DNA of 20,000 nt from an uncultured virus (IMG/VR IMGVR_UViG_3300036398_005783) (lineage: Duplodnaviria > Heunggongvirae > Uroviricota > Caudoviricetes), in the IMG/VR virus record IMGVR_UViG_3300036398_005783. One strand, 5' to 3'. Position 1 is the stretch's first letter. Every line of letters begins with the position of its first letter. The position numbers and the translations under genes were made by a program. This document shows positions 3,610 through 17,162 of the stretch, piece by piece. Below the pieces are notes generated by a model, which was not told the origin of the DNA, ran no database searches, and saw only the letters and a program-made list of their open reading frames with translations.

Positions 3610-4122
3610 TTATTTCTCAAAATCTATCTTGTGAACTTCAAGCGGAACGAACATATTTACAATAGGATATTGACCATCATAATATATTCCATCAAAATGC
3701 TTTTGGAGTTTTTCTAAAAGGTATTGAAAATTCATACCACCCATTTTCATAAAGTTATTTATTATTTCAAAAATTTCTAATGAAAGCAATTTGAATGTAT
3801 CTGGAGATTTTCTATAAAACTCAATCGCTTCAATTATATTAAATATAGTATCACCCGAAACTGTGGTTTTATAGAGATAATTAGAAGAACGAACTACTAA
3901 TGGTTCTGTTTTAGTTAAATCTGTATAATAAAATACTCTTGCGACATCCGAGCGTTTATAATCATTCATTGAATAATATTGTGCTCTTTTCTTTGCTTCA
4001 ATTGGATCAAGTATTGTTTCTTCACCCAAATCCTGATTTGTATAGTGAAATAAATTTACTTTACCTTCTAAAGTAAAAGGAAGGGGGTTTCCCCCCTTGC
4101 TATTTTTAATATCTGAATTCAT
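3610..4122 (-). CDS. Hypothetical protein, possible ADP-ribosyltransferase-like fold
   Basis: Motif order LFHYT...VFYYTD...YLY...FDGIYY resembles ART-like domains of phage polyvalent proteins; overlaps the metK 3' end. Confidence 0.5.
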   Translation of the reverse strand: MNSDIKNSKGGNPLPFTLEGKVNLFHYTNQDLGEETILDPIEAKKRAQYYSMNDYKRSDVARVFYYTDLTKTEPLVVRSSNYLYKTTVSGDTIFNIIEAIEFYRKSPDTFKLLSLEIFEIINNFMKMGGMNFQYLLEKLQKHFDGIYYDGQYPIVNMFVPLEVHKIDFEK

Positions 4123-5332
4123 TGATTTCTAAACTATTTGGAATGTATATATCGGAACTTTGTTCCGAACTACCATTTTTTTGGTAAGACTCCCATTTGA
4201 AGAATGATACATCTCCATTCTTTTTATGTGGATTACCAAAGTGACCATATCTTGATGTTTGCAAATAAATAGGAGATTTTAATTCTAAATAATCTATAAT
4301 AGAACTTGGGGTTAAATCTTCTAAATTAAAATCTTGAAGACTATATTCTTTACCATTAGTAGAATCAAATATTCTATAAGAGATAGGATATTTTTCTCCA
4401 ATTGCATAAGAAAGTTGAACTTTAATATTTTTGGCTTCTGGATTATTATGTAATGTTGTGAGTGCTATATGTCTTGCCATATAAGCAGCACTCCTATCAA
4501 CTTTACTTGGATCTTTTCCAGAAAATGCACCGCCACCTATTTCACAATCAGCACCATATTGATCTACAACAATTTTTCTTCCAGTTAAACCTGAATCTGA
4601 AACTGGACCTCCCATATTCCAAGTTCCTGCTGGATTGATGTAATACTTGGTTGTATTTTGAAATAGAGACTTAATTTCTTCAGGAACAGAATCAAGAACT
4701 TTTGGAAGAAGAACATAATGAAATAATTCTCTTAATGCTTTTAGAGAAAGTTCTTCTTTATGACATGTTGAAAAAACTAAAGAATGAACTTTTTTCGCTT
4801 TTCCATTTTCAAATTCAAGAGAAATTTGACTTTTCATATCAGGTCTAAACGGATACAATTTATCTCTAAATTCATACGCTTCTGAAATAAAAAGTTTTGA
4901 CAAATAAATAGGCAAAGGCATTTTTGTTGGAGTGTCATTTGTTGCAAATCCAAACATAATTCCTTGATCACCTGCTGTGACTTCCTCACCTGTTACAACA
5001 GCGTGATTAATTTCAGGTGATTGTTTTGATATATCAAATTGAATATTACAAGTATTACCATTAAAACCCAATTCATCGGAATTATATCCGATTTCAGAAA
5101 TGCAATTACGAACTGCATTCTCAATATAATCATTACTCAATTCAATATCGGATGTTATCTCACCAGCCAAATAAACATTATTACCCTTTACAAGAGTCTC
5201 ACATGCTACTTTGGCATTAGGATCGACCGATAGGTATGCATCTAAAACCACATCAGAAATTTGATCCGCTACTTTATCTGGGTGACCAGGTGAAACATAT
5301 TCACTTGTCCAGATATAAGAATTTTTACTCAT
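4106..5332 (-). CDS. metK: S-adenosylmethionine synthetase
   Basis: SEYVSPGHPDKVADQISD, VACET, AGDQGIMFG, GLTGRKIVVD, GGGAFSGKDPSKVDRSAAY, YGHFG; SD GAGG. Confidence 0.97.
   Translation of the reverse strand: MSKNSYIWTSEYVSPGHPDKVADQISDVVLDAYLSVDPNAKVACETLVKGNNVYLAGEITSDIELSNDYIENAVRNCISEIGYNSDELGFNGNTCNIQFDISKQSPEINHAVVTGEEVTAGDQGIMFGFATNDTPTKMPLPIYLSKLFISEAYEFRDKLYPFRPDMKSQISLEFENGKAKKVHSLVFSTCHKEELSLKALRELFHYVLLPKVLDSVPEEIKSLFQNTTKYYINPAGTWNMGGPVSDSGLTGRKIVVDQYGADCEIGGGAFSGKDPSKVDRSAAYMARHIALTTLHNNPEAKNIKVQLSYAIGEKYPISYRIFDSTNGKEYSLQDFNLEDLTPSSIIDYLELKSPIYLQTSRYGHFGNPHKKNGDVSFFKWESYQKNGSSEQSSDIYIPNSLEINEFRY
4146..4153 (-). promoter_or_regulatory. Class II promoter embedded in metK 3' end
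   Basis: GATATATA about 24 nt upstream of ATG 4122. Confidence 0.5.
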
Positions 5333-5433: not shown

Positions 5434-5441
5434 GATATATA
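5434..5441 (+). promoter_or_regulatory. Class II promoter GATATATA
   Basis: About 19 nt upstream of ATG 5460. Confidence 0.6.
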
Positions 5442-5459
5442 AGGAAAATGATTCTTTAT

Positions 5460-5939
5460 ATGAGATACATTAAAGTATTTGAAGATTTTTATGAAGTAAA
5501 TGAAATAGGATATAGACCCATAGATAATAATGAAATTTCATCAAATACTCAAAATTACTTAAATGATATTTTTTTCAAGGAATTAGGTAAATCAGAACCA
5601 AATTTTGAAATTATAGAGAATTTGTTAAAAAATAAAATAGTAGATATAAATTGTAAGGGTATATGGAATAGAACAGCACTCCATCTTTCAGCATATTACA
5701 ATCATATAAATATAATTAAAATGCTTTTAGAATTAGGAATTGATATAGAAAGTTTAGATATTTGGAACAAAACAGCATTACATATAGCATCTTTTTATAA
5801 TAGATTTGAGATTATTCAAATGCTTTTGAATAAAGGTTCAGATAACAATAAAAAAGATAGTTATGGAAAAACTGCTTGGGATTATGCAAATGAATTTATT
5901 AAGATTTCATTACCTGAATTAAAACCTAAAAATAAATAA
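5460..5939 (+). CDS. Ankyrin repeat protein with CTS-like leader (alternative start 5448)
   Basis: RTALHLSAYYNHINIIKMLLELG, KTALHIASFYNRFEIIQMLLNKG, GKTAWDYA; MRYIKVFEDFYEVNE leader. Confidence 0.9.
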   Translation: MRYIKVFEDFYEVNEIGYRPIDNNEISSNTQNYLNDIFFKELGKSEPNFEIIENLLKNKIVDINCKGIWNRTALHLSAYYNHINIIKMLLELGIDIESLDIWNKTALHIASFYNRFEIIQMLLNKGSDNNKKDSYGKTAWDYANEFIKISLPELKPKNK

Positions 5940-5946
5940 TAATACT

Positions 5947-6081
5947 ATGAAATTCACAAAAATAAGAATGGGAAAAGAAAACCGAAAATTAAGAATAGGA
6001 ATTGGAAAATATGAAGGTTCTTGGTTTTTTAGAATAGATTTATGGTTTATTGGTTTCAGATTATCAAGTAAAAAATCCTGA
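5947..6081 (+). CDS. 44-aa basic/aromatic hypothetical peptide
   Basis: Not in ORF track: MKFTKIRMGKENRKLRIGIGKYEGSWFFRIDLWFIGFRLSSKKS; begins 7 nt after the previous stop. Confidence 0.6.
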   Translation: MKFTKIRMGKENRKLRIGIGKYEGSWFFRIDLWFIGFRLSSKKS

Positions 6082-6088
6082 TATATAG
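6080..6088 (+). promoter_or_regulatory. Class II promoter with no downstream CDS
   Basis: GATATATAG followed by a hairpin and terminator only. Confidence 0.55.
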
Positions 6089-6092
6089 AAAT

Positions 6093-6177
6093 ATGGGTAC
6101 TTGACTCCTCTGCTTTATATCAAAGCATAATCAAGTAGGAATGGGAAAGGGAAAGAGGGCTTTTAGCCCTCTTTTTA
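6093..6177 (+). ncRNA. Candidate late-expressed small RNA (~85 nt)
   Basis: Promoter box, stem TACTTGA/TCAAGTA with inner TGCTTT/AAAGCA, purine-rich linker, terminator; only a 3-codon ORF. Confidence 0.5.
6152..6176. terminator. Bidirectional intrinsic terminator
   Basis: AAAGAGGGC-tttta-GCCCTCTTTTT. Confidence 0.85.
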
Positions 6178-6178
6178 T

Positions 6179-7633
6179 TTATTGCATAATTTGAATTTTC
6201 TCAACTATCATATCTCCTACATGCTTTCCATTATGTTTATAGAATGAAAAATTGTAAGATTCCGCTTTGTTAATTTCATATTCAAATGTAACAAGAGTTC
6301 TTCCACTTTTGGTTGTTTCTTTACAACATCCTCCACCGCAATCTTTTGAAATCATCTCATGATCAGAACCGAAGAAAGTCATATAACCTACAAAGTTAGG
6401 TATTGATGGGTATGGTAAAATATTCTTGTTTCTATTCAGATAAACTTCATAAACTCCCTTTGGTCTTTTAGTAAAAGATACTTGTATTAAAACTTTTGTT
6501 TTAGCATTAAAACTTGATTTTAATGGTTGCTTTTTCACATTAATAGTAATAGCATCTGTTATCTGAGAGTTAATAGATATTTTTTCCACACTTTCGCCAA
6601 TCACTTGTTTGAATGATGCCTGAGCAAGTAATTGATTTTCATTCTTCATAACGGGTGTATCATCAAAATCATAGTCCATAGTGTAAAGAATTTTCATAAC
6701 ATCTTCCATTGTATAGACTACTTTCTTACCATGTTCATCAAAAAATACATAGTCCCAAGGAATTGATTTTAATTCTTCAATAGTTACCATTTGACCATTT
6801 TTTGAATTTGTCCATTGTTGCCAAATTCTATCTATATTTGAATGATGCATCCAAAATATAGGATCAAAACCTGCTGTTGGAACCCAACCCATTAAACCAT
6901 CTTCAGTAATCGTGCCTGTAATTGTATTATTAAAACGCTTTCCATCAGGTTCATTACCATGACCAATATAATCATGTATAGCACCATGTGGAGCATTGTT
7001 TATATTTTTACAATACATTTGATATGTAGTGTAATCATTCAATTTTGTTAAATCTAATGCTCTTTCGATTTCACCTGAAATTGGATGTCCATTATTAATA
7101 CTATCAAATCTGCAAGATTCCCATAAACTTGATGATGGATTTCTGAATGTTGGGTGAAGATATTTATCCTTTGGATTTGAATTGGTATATCCCCAATATG
7201 GTAAAGCAAAATCCTTATGTCCTGATAACCTTCTTACAATCTTTTCAAAATGATAAATGTATAATCTATGCCAAACTAAAAAATGTAACTTTTCTTTTCC
7301 GCTAGGTGAATGTGTGCAATTATCCCAAGCAATCTTTTTATCAAGATATGTATGATATGATTCACACAATTTATTATTATTAATCGTATCTGGAATCCAA
7401 TGAATCGCTCCTTGATAATACCAACTTAATGGATTATTGCAATTCTTATCCCTCATAATTTTGAATGCTTTTTCAAGTGCTTCAACATCTTTTTTTGCTT
7501 CTGCCGAAAAGTAATTTTTTCTAACATAGCGAGTTGGTTCTTCTTGGATTCTTAACCATACAAAATATCCTATTGCTTGTAAAAGCACAACAGATAATGT
7601 AATTAAAATCCACTTGTTTTTCAGGATTTTCAT
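6179..7633 (-). CDS. Tyrosinase / polyphenol oxidase (type-3 copper protein), N-terminal membrane anchor
   Basis: CuA: GAIHW, NCTH, FLVWHRLYIYHFE; ALPYW; CuB: APHGAIHDYIG, FDPIFWMHHSNIDRIW; C-terminal PPO-like domain (GVYEVYLN...FVGYMTFFG). Confidence 0.93.
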   Translation of the reverse strand: MKILKNKWILITLSVVLLQAIGYFVWLRIQEEPTRYVRKNYFSAEAKKDVEALEKAFKIMRDKNCNNPLSWYYQGAIHWIPDTINNNKLCESYHTYLDKKIAWDNCTHSPSGKEKLHFLVWHRLYIYHFEKIVRRLSGHKDFALPYWGYTNSNPKDKYLHPTFRNPSSSLWESCRFDSINNGHPISGEIERALDLTKLNDYTTYQMYCKNINNAPHGAIHDYIGHGNEPDGKRFNNTITGTITEDGLMGWVPTAGFDPIFWMHHSNIDRIWQQWTNSKNGQMVTIEELKSIPWDYVFFDEHGKKVVYTMEDVMKILYTMDYDFDDTPVMKNENQLLAQASFKQVIGESVEKISINSQITDAITINVKKQPLKSSFNAKTKVLIQVSFTKRPKGVYEVYLNRNKNILPYPSIPNFVGYMTFFGSDHEMISKDCGGGCCKETTKSGRTLVTFEYEINKAESYNFSFYKHNGKHVGDMIVEKIQIMQ

Positions 7634-8012: not shown

Positions 8013-9233
8013 TTATTGGATAACCATCCAATTTACACCATTATACCACAATGTTCTTGATTGACCTGCAAAAATAACAACATCAAGCATAGTATCAATA
8101 TTCCAAGTGATTCCACGCAATGTTACAACATTTGCAGTTGATCCATTATGCACAGTTACCATCTGACCTAAAATAGGGTTAGTAATTGCAGTCATATTGT
8201 AATCAACAGCCACACGACTTACAATATATCTTTCTGTATTTGCAAGTGAAAGTGGTGCTTGTGTATACAATGATACAGATGTTGTAAAGTGATGTGGATT
8301 TACTGCCCAACGCAAACCAGTTGCACTAGCCATAGCGTATGAACCAATAGGAGCAGTTGAACCACCATCTAAAGCAGGAAGTTTGACAGAATTGTTTTTG
8401 AAATGGCTTGAAACCAAAACAGAATCAATGATATTATTAGCAATACCAGATGTAGCAGAATGTCCAGAATTTACGCTATAAAGAGCAGTATCTGCATAAA
8501 CAGAATGATTACTATTCACAGCATATAAAGAACTATCAGAAGTTGCTGAGTGATTAGCTTCAATTGAATAAAATGCACTATCAGCAATTTCAGCATGAGC
8601 TGAATTTGAGGAGTAACCAGATAGGCGAGAATAAATAGACTCAAGTGCAATTGTTGAAGAATCTGCCCAATGACTTGATGCAGATCTACCTGCTCTTTTA
8701 GCAGAATCCGCTAATGTTGAATTAACAGAATGAAATGCATTATTAGATGAATCTGAAATAGCGGATCTTCCTGAATTAATTGCAAACAAAGAAGTATCGG
8801 ACTTTACCGCATGTCTTGCTTCATTGGCTCTTACTGCATTTAGAGCATTTCTTGATGAATCTGAATTTGTTGAGAATTGAGAATGAAGTGCATATGGTAC
8901 TCTATGCAAAGGGAGTTTACCAATTTTTACTCCATTTACATAAGCATATACAAAAATATTTGAACTATTGTTCAAAAATACTGAATTAGGAATATCCTCT
9001 AAAAGAACATTAATAATTCCTTCAAATACCTCAACTTTTTTATTCTCAACAAACCAAAAAGCAGAAGTATTCAAATGTGAATCTTCATTAAAAGAATTAT
9101 CTGCAATATATGCAGAAAAAGAAATTTCACCAGAAATACCTGGTGGAACATGTGCTTGATATTGCAAGTCTGTTGTTTGTGCAGTAAGACTAACTGCAAA
9201 CATAGCGAAAAAAGCTACGAAAAGAGATTTCAT
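8013..9233 (-). CDS. Secreted fibre/adhesin-like protein of FCB type with (A/S)xx repeats
   Basis: Signal peptide; LQYQA...V.VFEGIINVLL...LHRVPYALHS N-domain; long 3-residue-periodic Ala/Ser stalk; SD GAGGA. Confidence 0.7.
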   Translation of the reverse strand: MKSLFVAFFAMFAVSLTAQTTDLQYQAHVPPGISGEISFSAYIADNSFNEDSHLNTSAFWFVENKKVEVFEGIINVLLEDIPNSVFLNNSSNIFVYAYVNGVKIGKLPLHRVPYALHSQFSTNSDSSRNALNAVRANEARHAVKSDTSLFAINSGRSAISDSSNNAFHSVNSTLADSAKRAGRSASSHWADSSTIALESIYSRLSGYSSNSAHAEIADSAFYSIEANHSATSDSSLYAVNSNHSVYADTALYSVNSGHSATSGIANNIIDSVLVSSHFKNNSVKLPALDGGSTAPIGSYAMASATGLRWAVNPHHFTTSVSLYTQAPLSLANTERYIVSRVAVDYNMTAITNPILGQMVTVHNGSTANVVTLRGITWNIDTMLDVVIFAGQSRTLWYNGVNWMVIQ

Positions 9234-11052: not shown

Positions 11053-11252
11053 GATTTCTTGTTTATCTTAATGTTTGCAGGATCATAGATTATTTCTGAA
11101 TAAATCATTTCTCCATCAGAACTATCCTTCATAAATTCTTCATAACGAGTTTTGATGGTGGAAATATCCATAGAATTAGTGATTTGAATTTTACGAGTTT
11201 CATTTGATGGATTATTAGAAATTGTTGAACCATCATCATTAGTGCTTTGCAT
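11049..11252 (-). CDS. Small hypothetical protein
   Basis: 67-aa ORF with SD AAGGA and class I promoter. Confidence 0.65.
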   Translation of the reverse strand: MQSTNDDGSTISNNPSNETRKIQITNSMDISTIKTRYEEFMKDSSDGEMIYSEIIYDPANIKINKKS

Positions 11253-11310: not shown

Positions 11311-11356
11311 GAAAATCATAAATTTATATATCAAATTTAACTTCATTAAGGTAGCA

Positions 11357-16874: not shown

Positions 16875-16894
16875 AAAGCCCCAATCGGGGCTTT
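16875..16894. terminator. Bidirectional intrinsic terminator
   Basis: AAAGCCCC-aatc-GGGGCTTT. Confidence 0.8.
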
Positions 16895-16895
16895 A

Positions 16896-17162
16896 TTATT
16901 TTTGTTTATACAATTTTATCTTCAAATCTCCACTTCCTTTTATTAACCTGTGATAAACTTCTTTTGCTATAAAGACTTTATCTTTTATTTCTTTAGGAAG
17001 TTCATTATCTATTTGAATTTTCCAATCCGTCTCATGTAGGGGTTCAATAAATCTATCTTCTTCATCTCTGTGCCAAGTAAAATCACCAGAATCTTCATTT
17101 TCAGAGAAAATTCTAATATAAACATTATCTTCAATATGTTTTTCTTGGAAAGGGAGTTTCAT
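16896..17162 (-). CDS. Small cupin-like conserved phage protein
   Basis: TWHRDEEDR...W..QIDNELP...FI....YHRLIKG cupin-like His motifs. Confidence 0.7.
   Translation of the reverse strand: MKLPFQEKHIEDNVYIRIFSENEDSGDFTWHRDEEDRFIEPLHETDWKIQIDNELPKEIKDKVFIAKEVYHRLIKGSGDLKIKLYKQK

Follow-up and report, generated by a model that had tools for sequence, protein, structure and literature searches.

A candidate small RNA module with an invariant purine tract that closes a late transcription unit in a jumbo phage

A short stretch of an uncultured phage genome, lying behind a 44-aa ORF and ending in an intrinsic terminator, is probably an uncatalogued small RNA module, of which we found two independent members. 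The window, i.e., the whole stretch of DNA analysed, comprises 20,000 nt of IMGVR_UViG_3300036398_005783 and holds one member. The other is on a jumbo-phage contig (L045), and the statistical margin by which this pair stands out is modest. We consider it likely that the RNA module is real and, with the same confidence, that selection acts on the RNA. We are more tentative on its role: by analogy with known sponges, the exposed and invariant purine/GGA tract may possibly serve as a protein-binding decoy, a reading that we favour with reserve. Few non-coding RNAs of lytic phages are reported to have an assigned role (PMC10884466).

The window has 28% GC and densely packed phage genes, including those encoding MetK, ankyrin, tyrosinase, and phosphodiester-glycosidase proteins. 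The sequencing runs containing it are mostly lake metagenomes. One conserved window gene has relatives on contigs of up to 465 kb, and the phage is therefore regarded as a jumbo phage. Two classes of genes can be told apart: late-type genes led by the box GATATATA without a Shine-Dalgarno (SD) sequence and genes with a TAnnTTTG-like box plus GAGG, GGAG, or AGGA. Such an SD-like motif is present within 20 nt of 11 of the 31 starts examined; ten of these starts belong to minus-strand genes without a box and one to a gene led by a box. TAnnTTTG boxes accompanied by a clear SD occur on the minus strand, e.g., upstream of 1821, 5332, 11252, and 12094, and late genes lack the SD. TAnnTTTG is a Bacteroidota-type promoter. 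Because these boxes precede SD-led genes and one window gene has a T9SS sorting domain slightly below the Pfam cut-off (25.4 versus 27 bits), the host looks FCB-like and SD-using. The SD is mostly absent from the mRNAs of Bacteroidia and Chlorobia (PMC9976891), which would make another FCB class the more likely host. The metK gene (4106-5332, minus strand) overlaps a gene of 170 aa (3610-4122, minus strand) whose late box sits within the metK 3′ end; both the pair and this arrangement recur in a second viral contig (L003).

The box GATATATA occurs 11 times in the window, compared with a mean of 2.27 in 200 shuffles, none of which reached 11. Behind nine of the 11 boxes lies an ORF of 75 aa or more, and the box also precedes genes in a related record (G001). 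The box at 6080 is followed by a single frame of three codons (Met-Gly-Thr-stop). Another gene-less box (11325-11332, minus strand) has no ORF within 60 nt and just precedes the TAnnTTTG box and SD-led gene at 11252. The features around the 6080 box are given in Table 1.

Table 1. Positions of the element, its predicted parts, and its neighbours in the window
Feature	Position	Strand	Remarks
Late box and ankyrin-repeat gene	box 5434-5441, unit 5434..5939	+	same transcription unit, upstream of the element
44-aa ORF, phrog_38838	5947..6081	+	predicted four-stranded sheet; closest non-conspecific homolog in L045
Late-type (class II) box GATATATA	6080..6087	+	overlaps the 44-aa ORF at its stop codon; no gene behind
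Outer stem, 5′ arm, TACTTGA, 7 bp	6098..6104	+	fold prediction; also in L045, where one A-U pair is G-C
Pyrimidine bulge CTCCTC, unpaired, anti-SD-like here	6105..6110	+	CCT alone common to L045
Inner hairpin, TGCTTT (6111-6116)/AAAGCA (6122-6127), 6 bp, 5-nt loop	6111..6127	+	weak AU-rich remnant in L045
Outer stem, 3′ arm, TCAAGTA	6131..6137	+	fold prediction and L045 comparison
Purine tract, predicted single-stranded	6138..6151	+	6138-6146 is GGAATGGGA, identical in L045
Intrinsic terminator with a 9-bp core stem (6152-6160/6166-6174) and a tail rich in U	6152..6180	+	two compensatory changes in L045
Tyrosinase-domain gene	6179..7633	-	convergent; stop codon abuts the terminator

A perfect class II box with no gene behind it, two nested stems, an unpaired CTCCTC, a purine tract, and a terminator had been proposed here in a first-pass annotation, and all of them were recovered at the same positions. 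The stretch had also been called unusually GC-rich, which holds: GC reaches 42% in 6095-6151 and 37% in 6080-6177, compared with 28% in the window. The bulge is predicted to be exposed (mean unpaired probability of 0.90), and the 9-mer GGAATGGGA to be mostly unpaired in the window RNA (0.84), less so in that of L045 (0.59). Three GGA motifs, at 6138, 6144, and 6150, lie 6 nt apart within the purine tract. The terminator (6152-6174) ranks first among 17 terminator-like sites in the window and probably also ends the convergent tyrosinase transcript. Of 146 terminators, 3 have eight G among the 14 nt preceding their stem, and two of these are the elements of the window and L045. The AUG of the motif opens frames of 17 and 20 codons through the terminator, without a positioned SD; we set this small-peptide reading aside as a by-product. 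The tyrosinase-domain protein has an N-terminal hydrophobic stretch and relatives on four viral contigs.

A metagenome scan anchored on the 44-aa ORF returned two loci, a conspecific one (L044) and L045 (ORF 77% identical in amino acids). L044 is 99.07% identical over 12 kb and its element is identical, box and bulge included; the element also lacks variants in four sequencing runs. At 99.07% identity, such strain-level invariance is uninformative. One of the runs holds several short contigs within 5959-6025, with ORF variants at 5989 and 5995, an instance of strain variation beside the invariant element. In L045, the ORF homolog heads a 2.6-kb late operon with three further genes and no second box, and the RNA unit (8563-8642) forms the 3′ end of this operon, directly after its last stop codon. 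The unit consists of a stem (TGCTTGA/TCAAGCA), a bulge with CCT (TGCCT), a weak AU hairpin, and three additional bases, followed by an identical GGAATGGGA, five G-rich bases, and the terminator; 5 nt separate the 9-mer from the terminator in both members. The outer stem, the CCU, the 9-mer and its distance to the terminator, the terminator itself, the plus-strand polarity, and the co-transcription with the 44-aa ORF are thus kept, while CTCCTC, the strong inner hairpin, and a late box of its own (no promoter box lies directly upstream) are not. With the stem, tract, and terminator kept and the box not, the ancestral unit looks like a 3′-terminal module, and this phage may additionally make a separate RNA of ~85 nt. 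There is no convergent gene at the L045 element; therefore, the tract is not merely the U/C-rich tail of an opposite-strand terminator.

Sequence comparison makes it probable that the L045 unit is homologous to the window element. Trained on the window sequence only, a covariance model gave L045:8563-8642 as its top non-self match in 1.41 Mb (38.9 bits; next match, 23.3). Generic terminators picked by a two-member model scored up to 31 bits with the same window-only model, and for this reason the body was scored separately. In a terminator-anchored, composition-weighted, sequence-only score, the body of L045 reached 18.9 bits; the 182 other unique terminators did not exceed 13.7, and none of 400 shuffles matched L045. 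L045 came second in an unweighted local alignment (31 versus 33 for the first) and was absent from the best 12 matches of an unanchored nhmmer search with the body only. Among 16 base pairs compared between the two members, 13 were unchanged and 3 changed, all of them compensatory, with none broken; 65 of 500 shuffles equalled this, so that with two rows the covariation is not significant alone. Between window and L045, the ORF is near saturation at silent sites (identity at 17 of 29 degenerate codons and at 2 of 6 four-fold sites), and the G-rich 9-mer is unchanged despite this, in DNA of 28-31% GC. The proposal of a late structured small RNA unit thus gained one probable homolog with compensatory changes, but the late promoter that was part of it is absent from L045. 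The first-pass annotation had weighed against itself a transcript that is only the 3′ UTR of the ORF or a structure that is not conserved: the L045 unit is indeed the 3′ end of an operon, which corresponds to part of this condition.

Several properties would suit a plain terminator, probably working in both directions, that is preceded by a look-alike, inherited or arisen by chance, and has no RNA function of its own; the box at 6080 would then be a relic or an accident. The stem, bulge, and hairpin alone show no excess of stability over shuffles (z of −0.09 in the window and +0.55 in L045); the terminator accounts for the z of −2.8 over 6090-6180, and the minus strand of the region outfolds the plus strand (−4.2 versus −2.8). 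Neither the promoter box nor the inner hairpin is conserved, the minus-strand box at 11332 is likewise gene-less, and the two-member model found no member in sets of 50, 40, and 5 records, where the matches inspected were generic terminators. However, an exact 9-mer at the same distance, a common CTTGA/TCAAG stem, and compensatory changes were all found in one locus chosen beforehand through the neighbouring ORF, and the element persists in L045 despite 2.4 kb of other genes after that ORF. We rate this explanation as unlikely.

The bulge had suggested a late anti-SD RNA that would block early and host mRNAs led by an SD, to the advantage of late mRNAs, which lack one; with L045 at hand, this would have to be a recent gain of the lineage, acquired along with the promoter box. 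C-rich anti-SD small RNAs are of the RsaE/RoxS type, and the exposed CUCCUC does complement SD sites as first noted: it pairs with all 10 SD-led leaders of the window (−4.4 to −7.1 kcal/mol) and not with 14 late leaders (mean of +0.6). Box and bulge are also unchanged in L044 and the four runs, although invariance at this identity carries no information. Unlike RsaE/RoxS, the element has one bulge of 6 nt, an internal loop yielding 4 to 6 bp only and no extended target duplex, and this bulge is not conserved in the one homolog, whose TGCCT pairs with the SD-led leaders of the window at a mean of −2.8 kcal/mol, compared with −5.6. The box followed by CTCCTC was found in 4 of 50 related records, as was a control pattern, and none was noted with this fold. 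Anti-SD silencing is thus improbable, the least probable of the functions considered here. A sponge for a GGA-binding protein and a fold-back onto the purine tract, both also raised at first, are candidate functions that fit the conserved parts better. The case also cautions that an anti-SD-looking bulge may vanish in the first homolog found.

Under the decoy reading, the element would be a small structured RNA module that closes a late transcription unit; in this phage, it is probably also transcribed alone, as a late RNA of ~85 nt with the 6080 box as its promoter. With the 7-bp stem fixing one end and the terminator the other, the invariant purine tract GGAAUGGGA(RR)G would be left single-stranded in the middle as the putative binding site, and the RNA would titrate a purine/GGA-binding protein late in infection, in the manner of a minimal CsrB/RsmZ-type sponge. 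The computed basis of this proposal is the sequence, the fold prediction, the promoter-box statistics, and one probable homolog with compensatory changes; it supposes transcription, a discrete RNA, single-strandedness in vivo, a protein partner, and a benefit to the phage. In CsrB-type sponges, GGA motifs lie in hairpin loops and are spaced for two-site binding. Like CsrB, RsmY, and RsmZ, the element is short, ends in a terminator, and has several unpaired GGA motifs, some of them right ahead of the terminator. It differs in having two to three GGA motifs, of which two are free in L045, 6 nt apart and none in a hairpin loop, and in its late phage promoter; multiple unpaired GGA motifs are therefore found, but not the loops and spacing of these RNAs, which speaks against the decoy, as does the lower unpaired probability of the 9-mer in L045 (0.59). 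CsrA (PF02599) was detected in none of 50 mostly incomplete phage records, with the control positive in 3 of 14 genomes. Being short and easy to synthesise, with an exposed 9-mer that is invariant and a variant that exists in nature, the element lends itself to inexpensive tests of RNA decoys in uncultured jumbo phages.

The same tract could instead be the seed of a trans-acting base-pairing small RNA with a C/U-rich host or phage RNA as target. According to PMC11697453, a conserved single-stranded segment with a Rho-independent terminator behind it is the layout of the Bacteroides small RNAs FopS and GibS, which are bound by RbpB, and the probable host of the phage is likewise of FCB type; unlike them as described there, the element has no sequence or Rfam match, is single copy in the DNA examined, has a bulged 5′ stem, and is phage-encoded. 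The tract can form an 8-bp duplex (−13.6 kcal/mol) with the start of the 88-aa gene at 17162. However, 32% of shuffled tails equalled this match, the best of 29 start regions, and pairing at the site is weaker (−4.4 to −11.1) among the 49 homolog rows listed. We see a seed function as doubtful. The first codons of this gene (16875-17162, minus strand) are complementary to the tract over 8 to 9 nt, which is not above shuffles.

In a further alternative, the CCU bulge would fold back as a pseudoknot onto the G-tract behind the invariant linker, giving a compact ligand- or protein-sensing fold that tunes the terminator like an attenuator; read-through would then reach a TPR/GT41 gene in L045 and run antisense to the tyrosinase gene in the window. 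The bulge differs between the two members in step with the tract (as duplexes, UCCU/GGGA for the window, −4.2 kcal/mol, and UGCCU/GGGCG for L045, −6.4 kcal/mol), yet this covariation amounts to one pair in a shifted register. The window bulge can pair with the 5′ arm of the terminator (6 bp, −7.3), and the L045 RNA forms an anti-terminator before the 3′ arm is synthesised (−15.3 versus −9.0), but neither sequestration of the arm exceeds shuffles (reached by 85% of 300 for the window and 11% for L045). As compared with a transcriptional riboswitch or attenuator, the anti-terminator is absent from the window RNA, which keeps the stem fold at every tested length (forced alternative, −8.3 versus −11.2), and no same-strand gene follows in the window. 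Regulation of this kind seems rather improbable. We give an equally slim chance to a combined proposal, a new jumbo-phage RNA family in which a 3′-terminal module was promoted to a stand-alone late RNA and the CCU bulge folds onto the G-tract, shaping the invariant GGAAUGGGA linker into a decoy for a host RNA-binding or anti-phage sensor protein, possibly with the co-transcribed basic β-sheet protein of 44 aa. If this held, a lytic phage of an FCB-type host would encode a small RNA that titrates a protein. The gene directly downstream of the RNA homolog in L045 (8678-10282, plus strand) encodes TPR repeats and a glycosyltransferase of family 41 (O-GlcNAc-transferase-like).

Phage HDV-like and theta ribozymes have a nested double pseudoknot with the catalytic C first in J4/2 (PMC10879173). 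Measured against that description, the element's stem arm, CCU, inner hairpin, stem arm, GG, and AAU-GGGA loosely echo the nested pseudoknot, and 4 of 6 loci with a homolog of the neighbouring ORF have tRNA genes close by; unlike these ribozymes, its linker lacks the catalytic C, and no tRNA was found in L044, L045, or an Rfam scan of the window. An HDV-like fold was not supported: a loose descriptor had no match on either strand of the window, and its 16 weak, AU-rich, overlapping matches in L045 are in a register that breaks the conserved stem. Both members have GG/GGG/GGG/GGG tracts, as a G-quadruplex switch would need, but the quadruplex option of ViennaRNA never selected one.

Searches for known families and further members returned none. 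In Rfam 15, the best overlaps with the window element reached 25 bits where 50 are needed (E of 1.8 to 4.1), and the best for the L045 homolog 25 bits where 130 are needed. The two-member model yielded no third member in ~93 related or neighbouring records (sets of 50, 40, and 5); at E≤0.5 it gave matches in 3, 1, and 4 records of these sets, respectively, and the 11 alignments inspected were generic terminators without the 9-mer. As most of these records are fragments, absence there is not shown. A pattern of stem plus motif had 11 matches in 7 of 50 records, none backed by the covariance model, the tract consensus with two mismatches allowed had none in 50 records, and the 9-mer alone was found at 17 sites in 5 records, never ahead of a terminator. 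DNA patterns in viral contigs gave 1, 30, 8, and 99 matches, all examined in context and none with the layout of the element. BLAST matches of either element to phage records were confined to the terminator, the element is absent by BLAST from the tyrosinase relatives L002 to L005, and scans of viral contigs with MetK and the small ORF had no match. Literature searches turned up no account of the element, although the supplementary motif lists of RNA-motif surveys could contain one.

The 44-aa protein is modelled with good confidence as a four-stranded sheet (pLDDT of 89.9). A fold search with this model had no match at E≤0.001 (best Z of 4.6), and a PC4-like T5 protein was dismissed as a fold relative (E of 2.9). 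Homologs of the ORF are widespread (136 clusters; 58 phage records), with phrog_38838 also present in phiKZ-like phages; none was found in the 50 family records. None of the six phage loci with a homolog that we opened carries the element, and the link between ORF and element is therefore not general. The homolog lies within tRNA arrays in three of these six loci and beside a single tRNA in a fourth (L251, L252, L255, and L256). Right behind the homolog in Ralstonia phage RSP15 (L252, 3120-3300), there is an unannotated, tRNA-like structured stretch that ARAGORN did not call.
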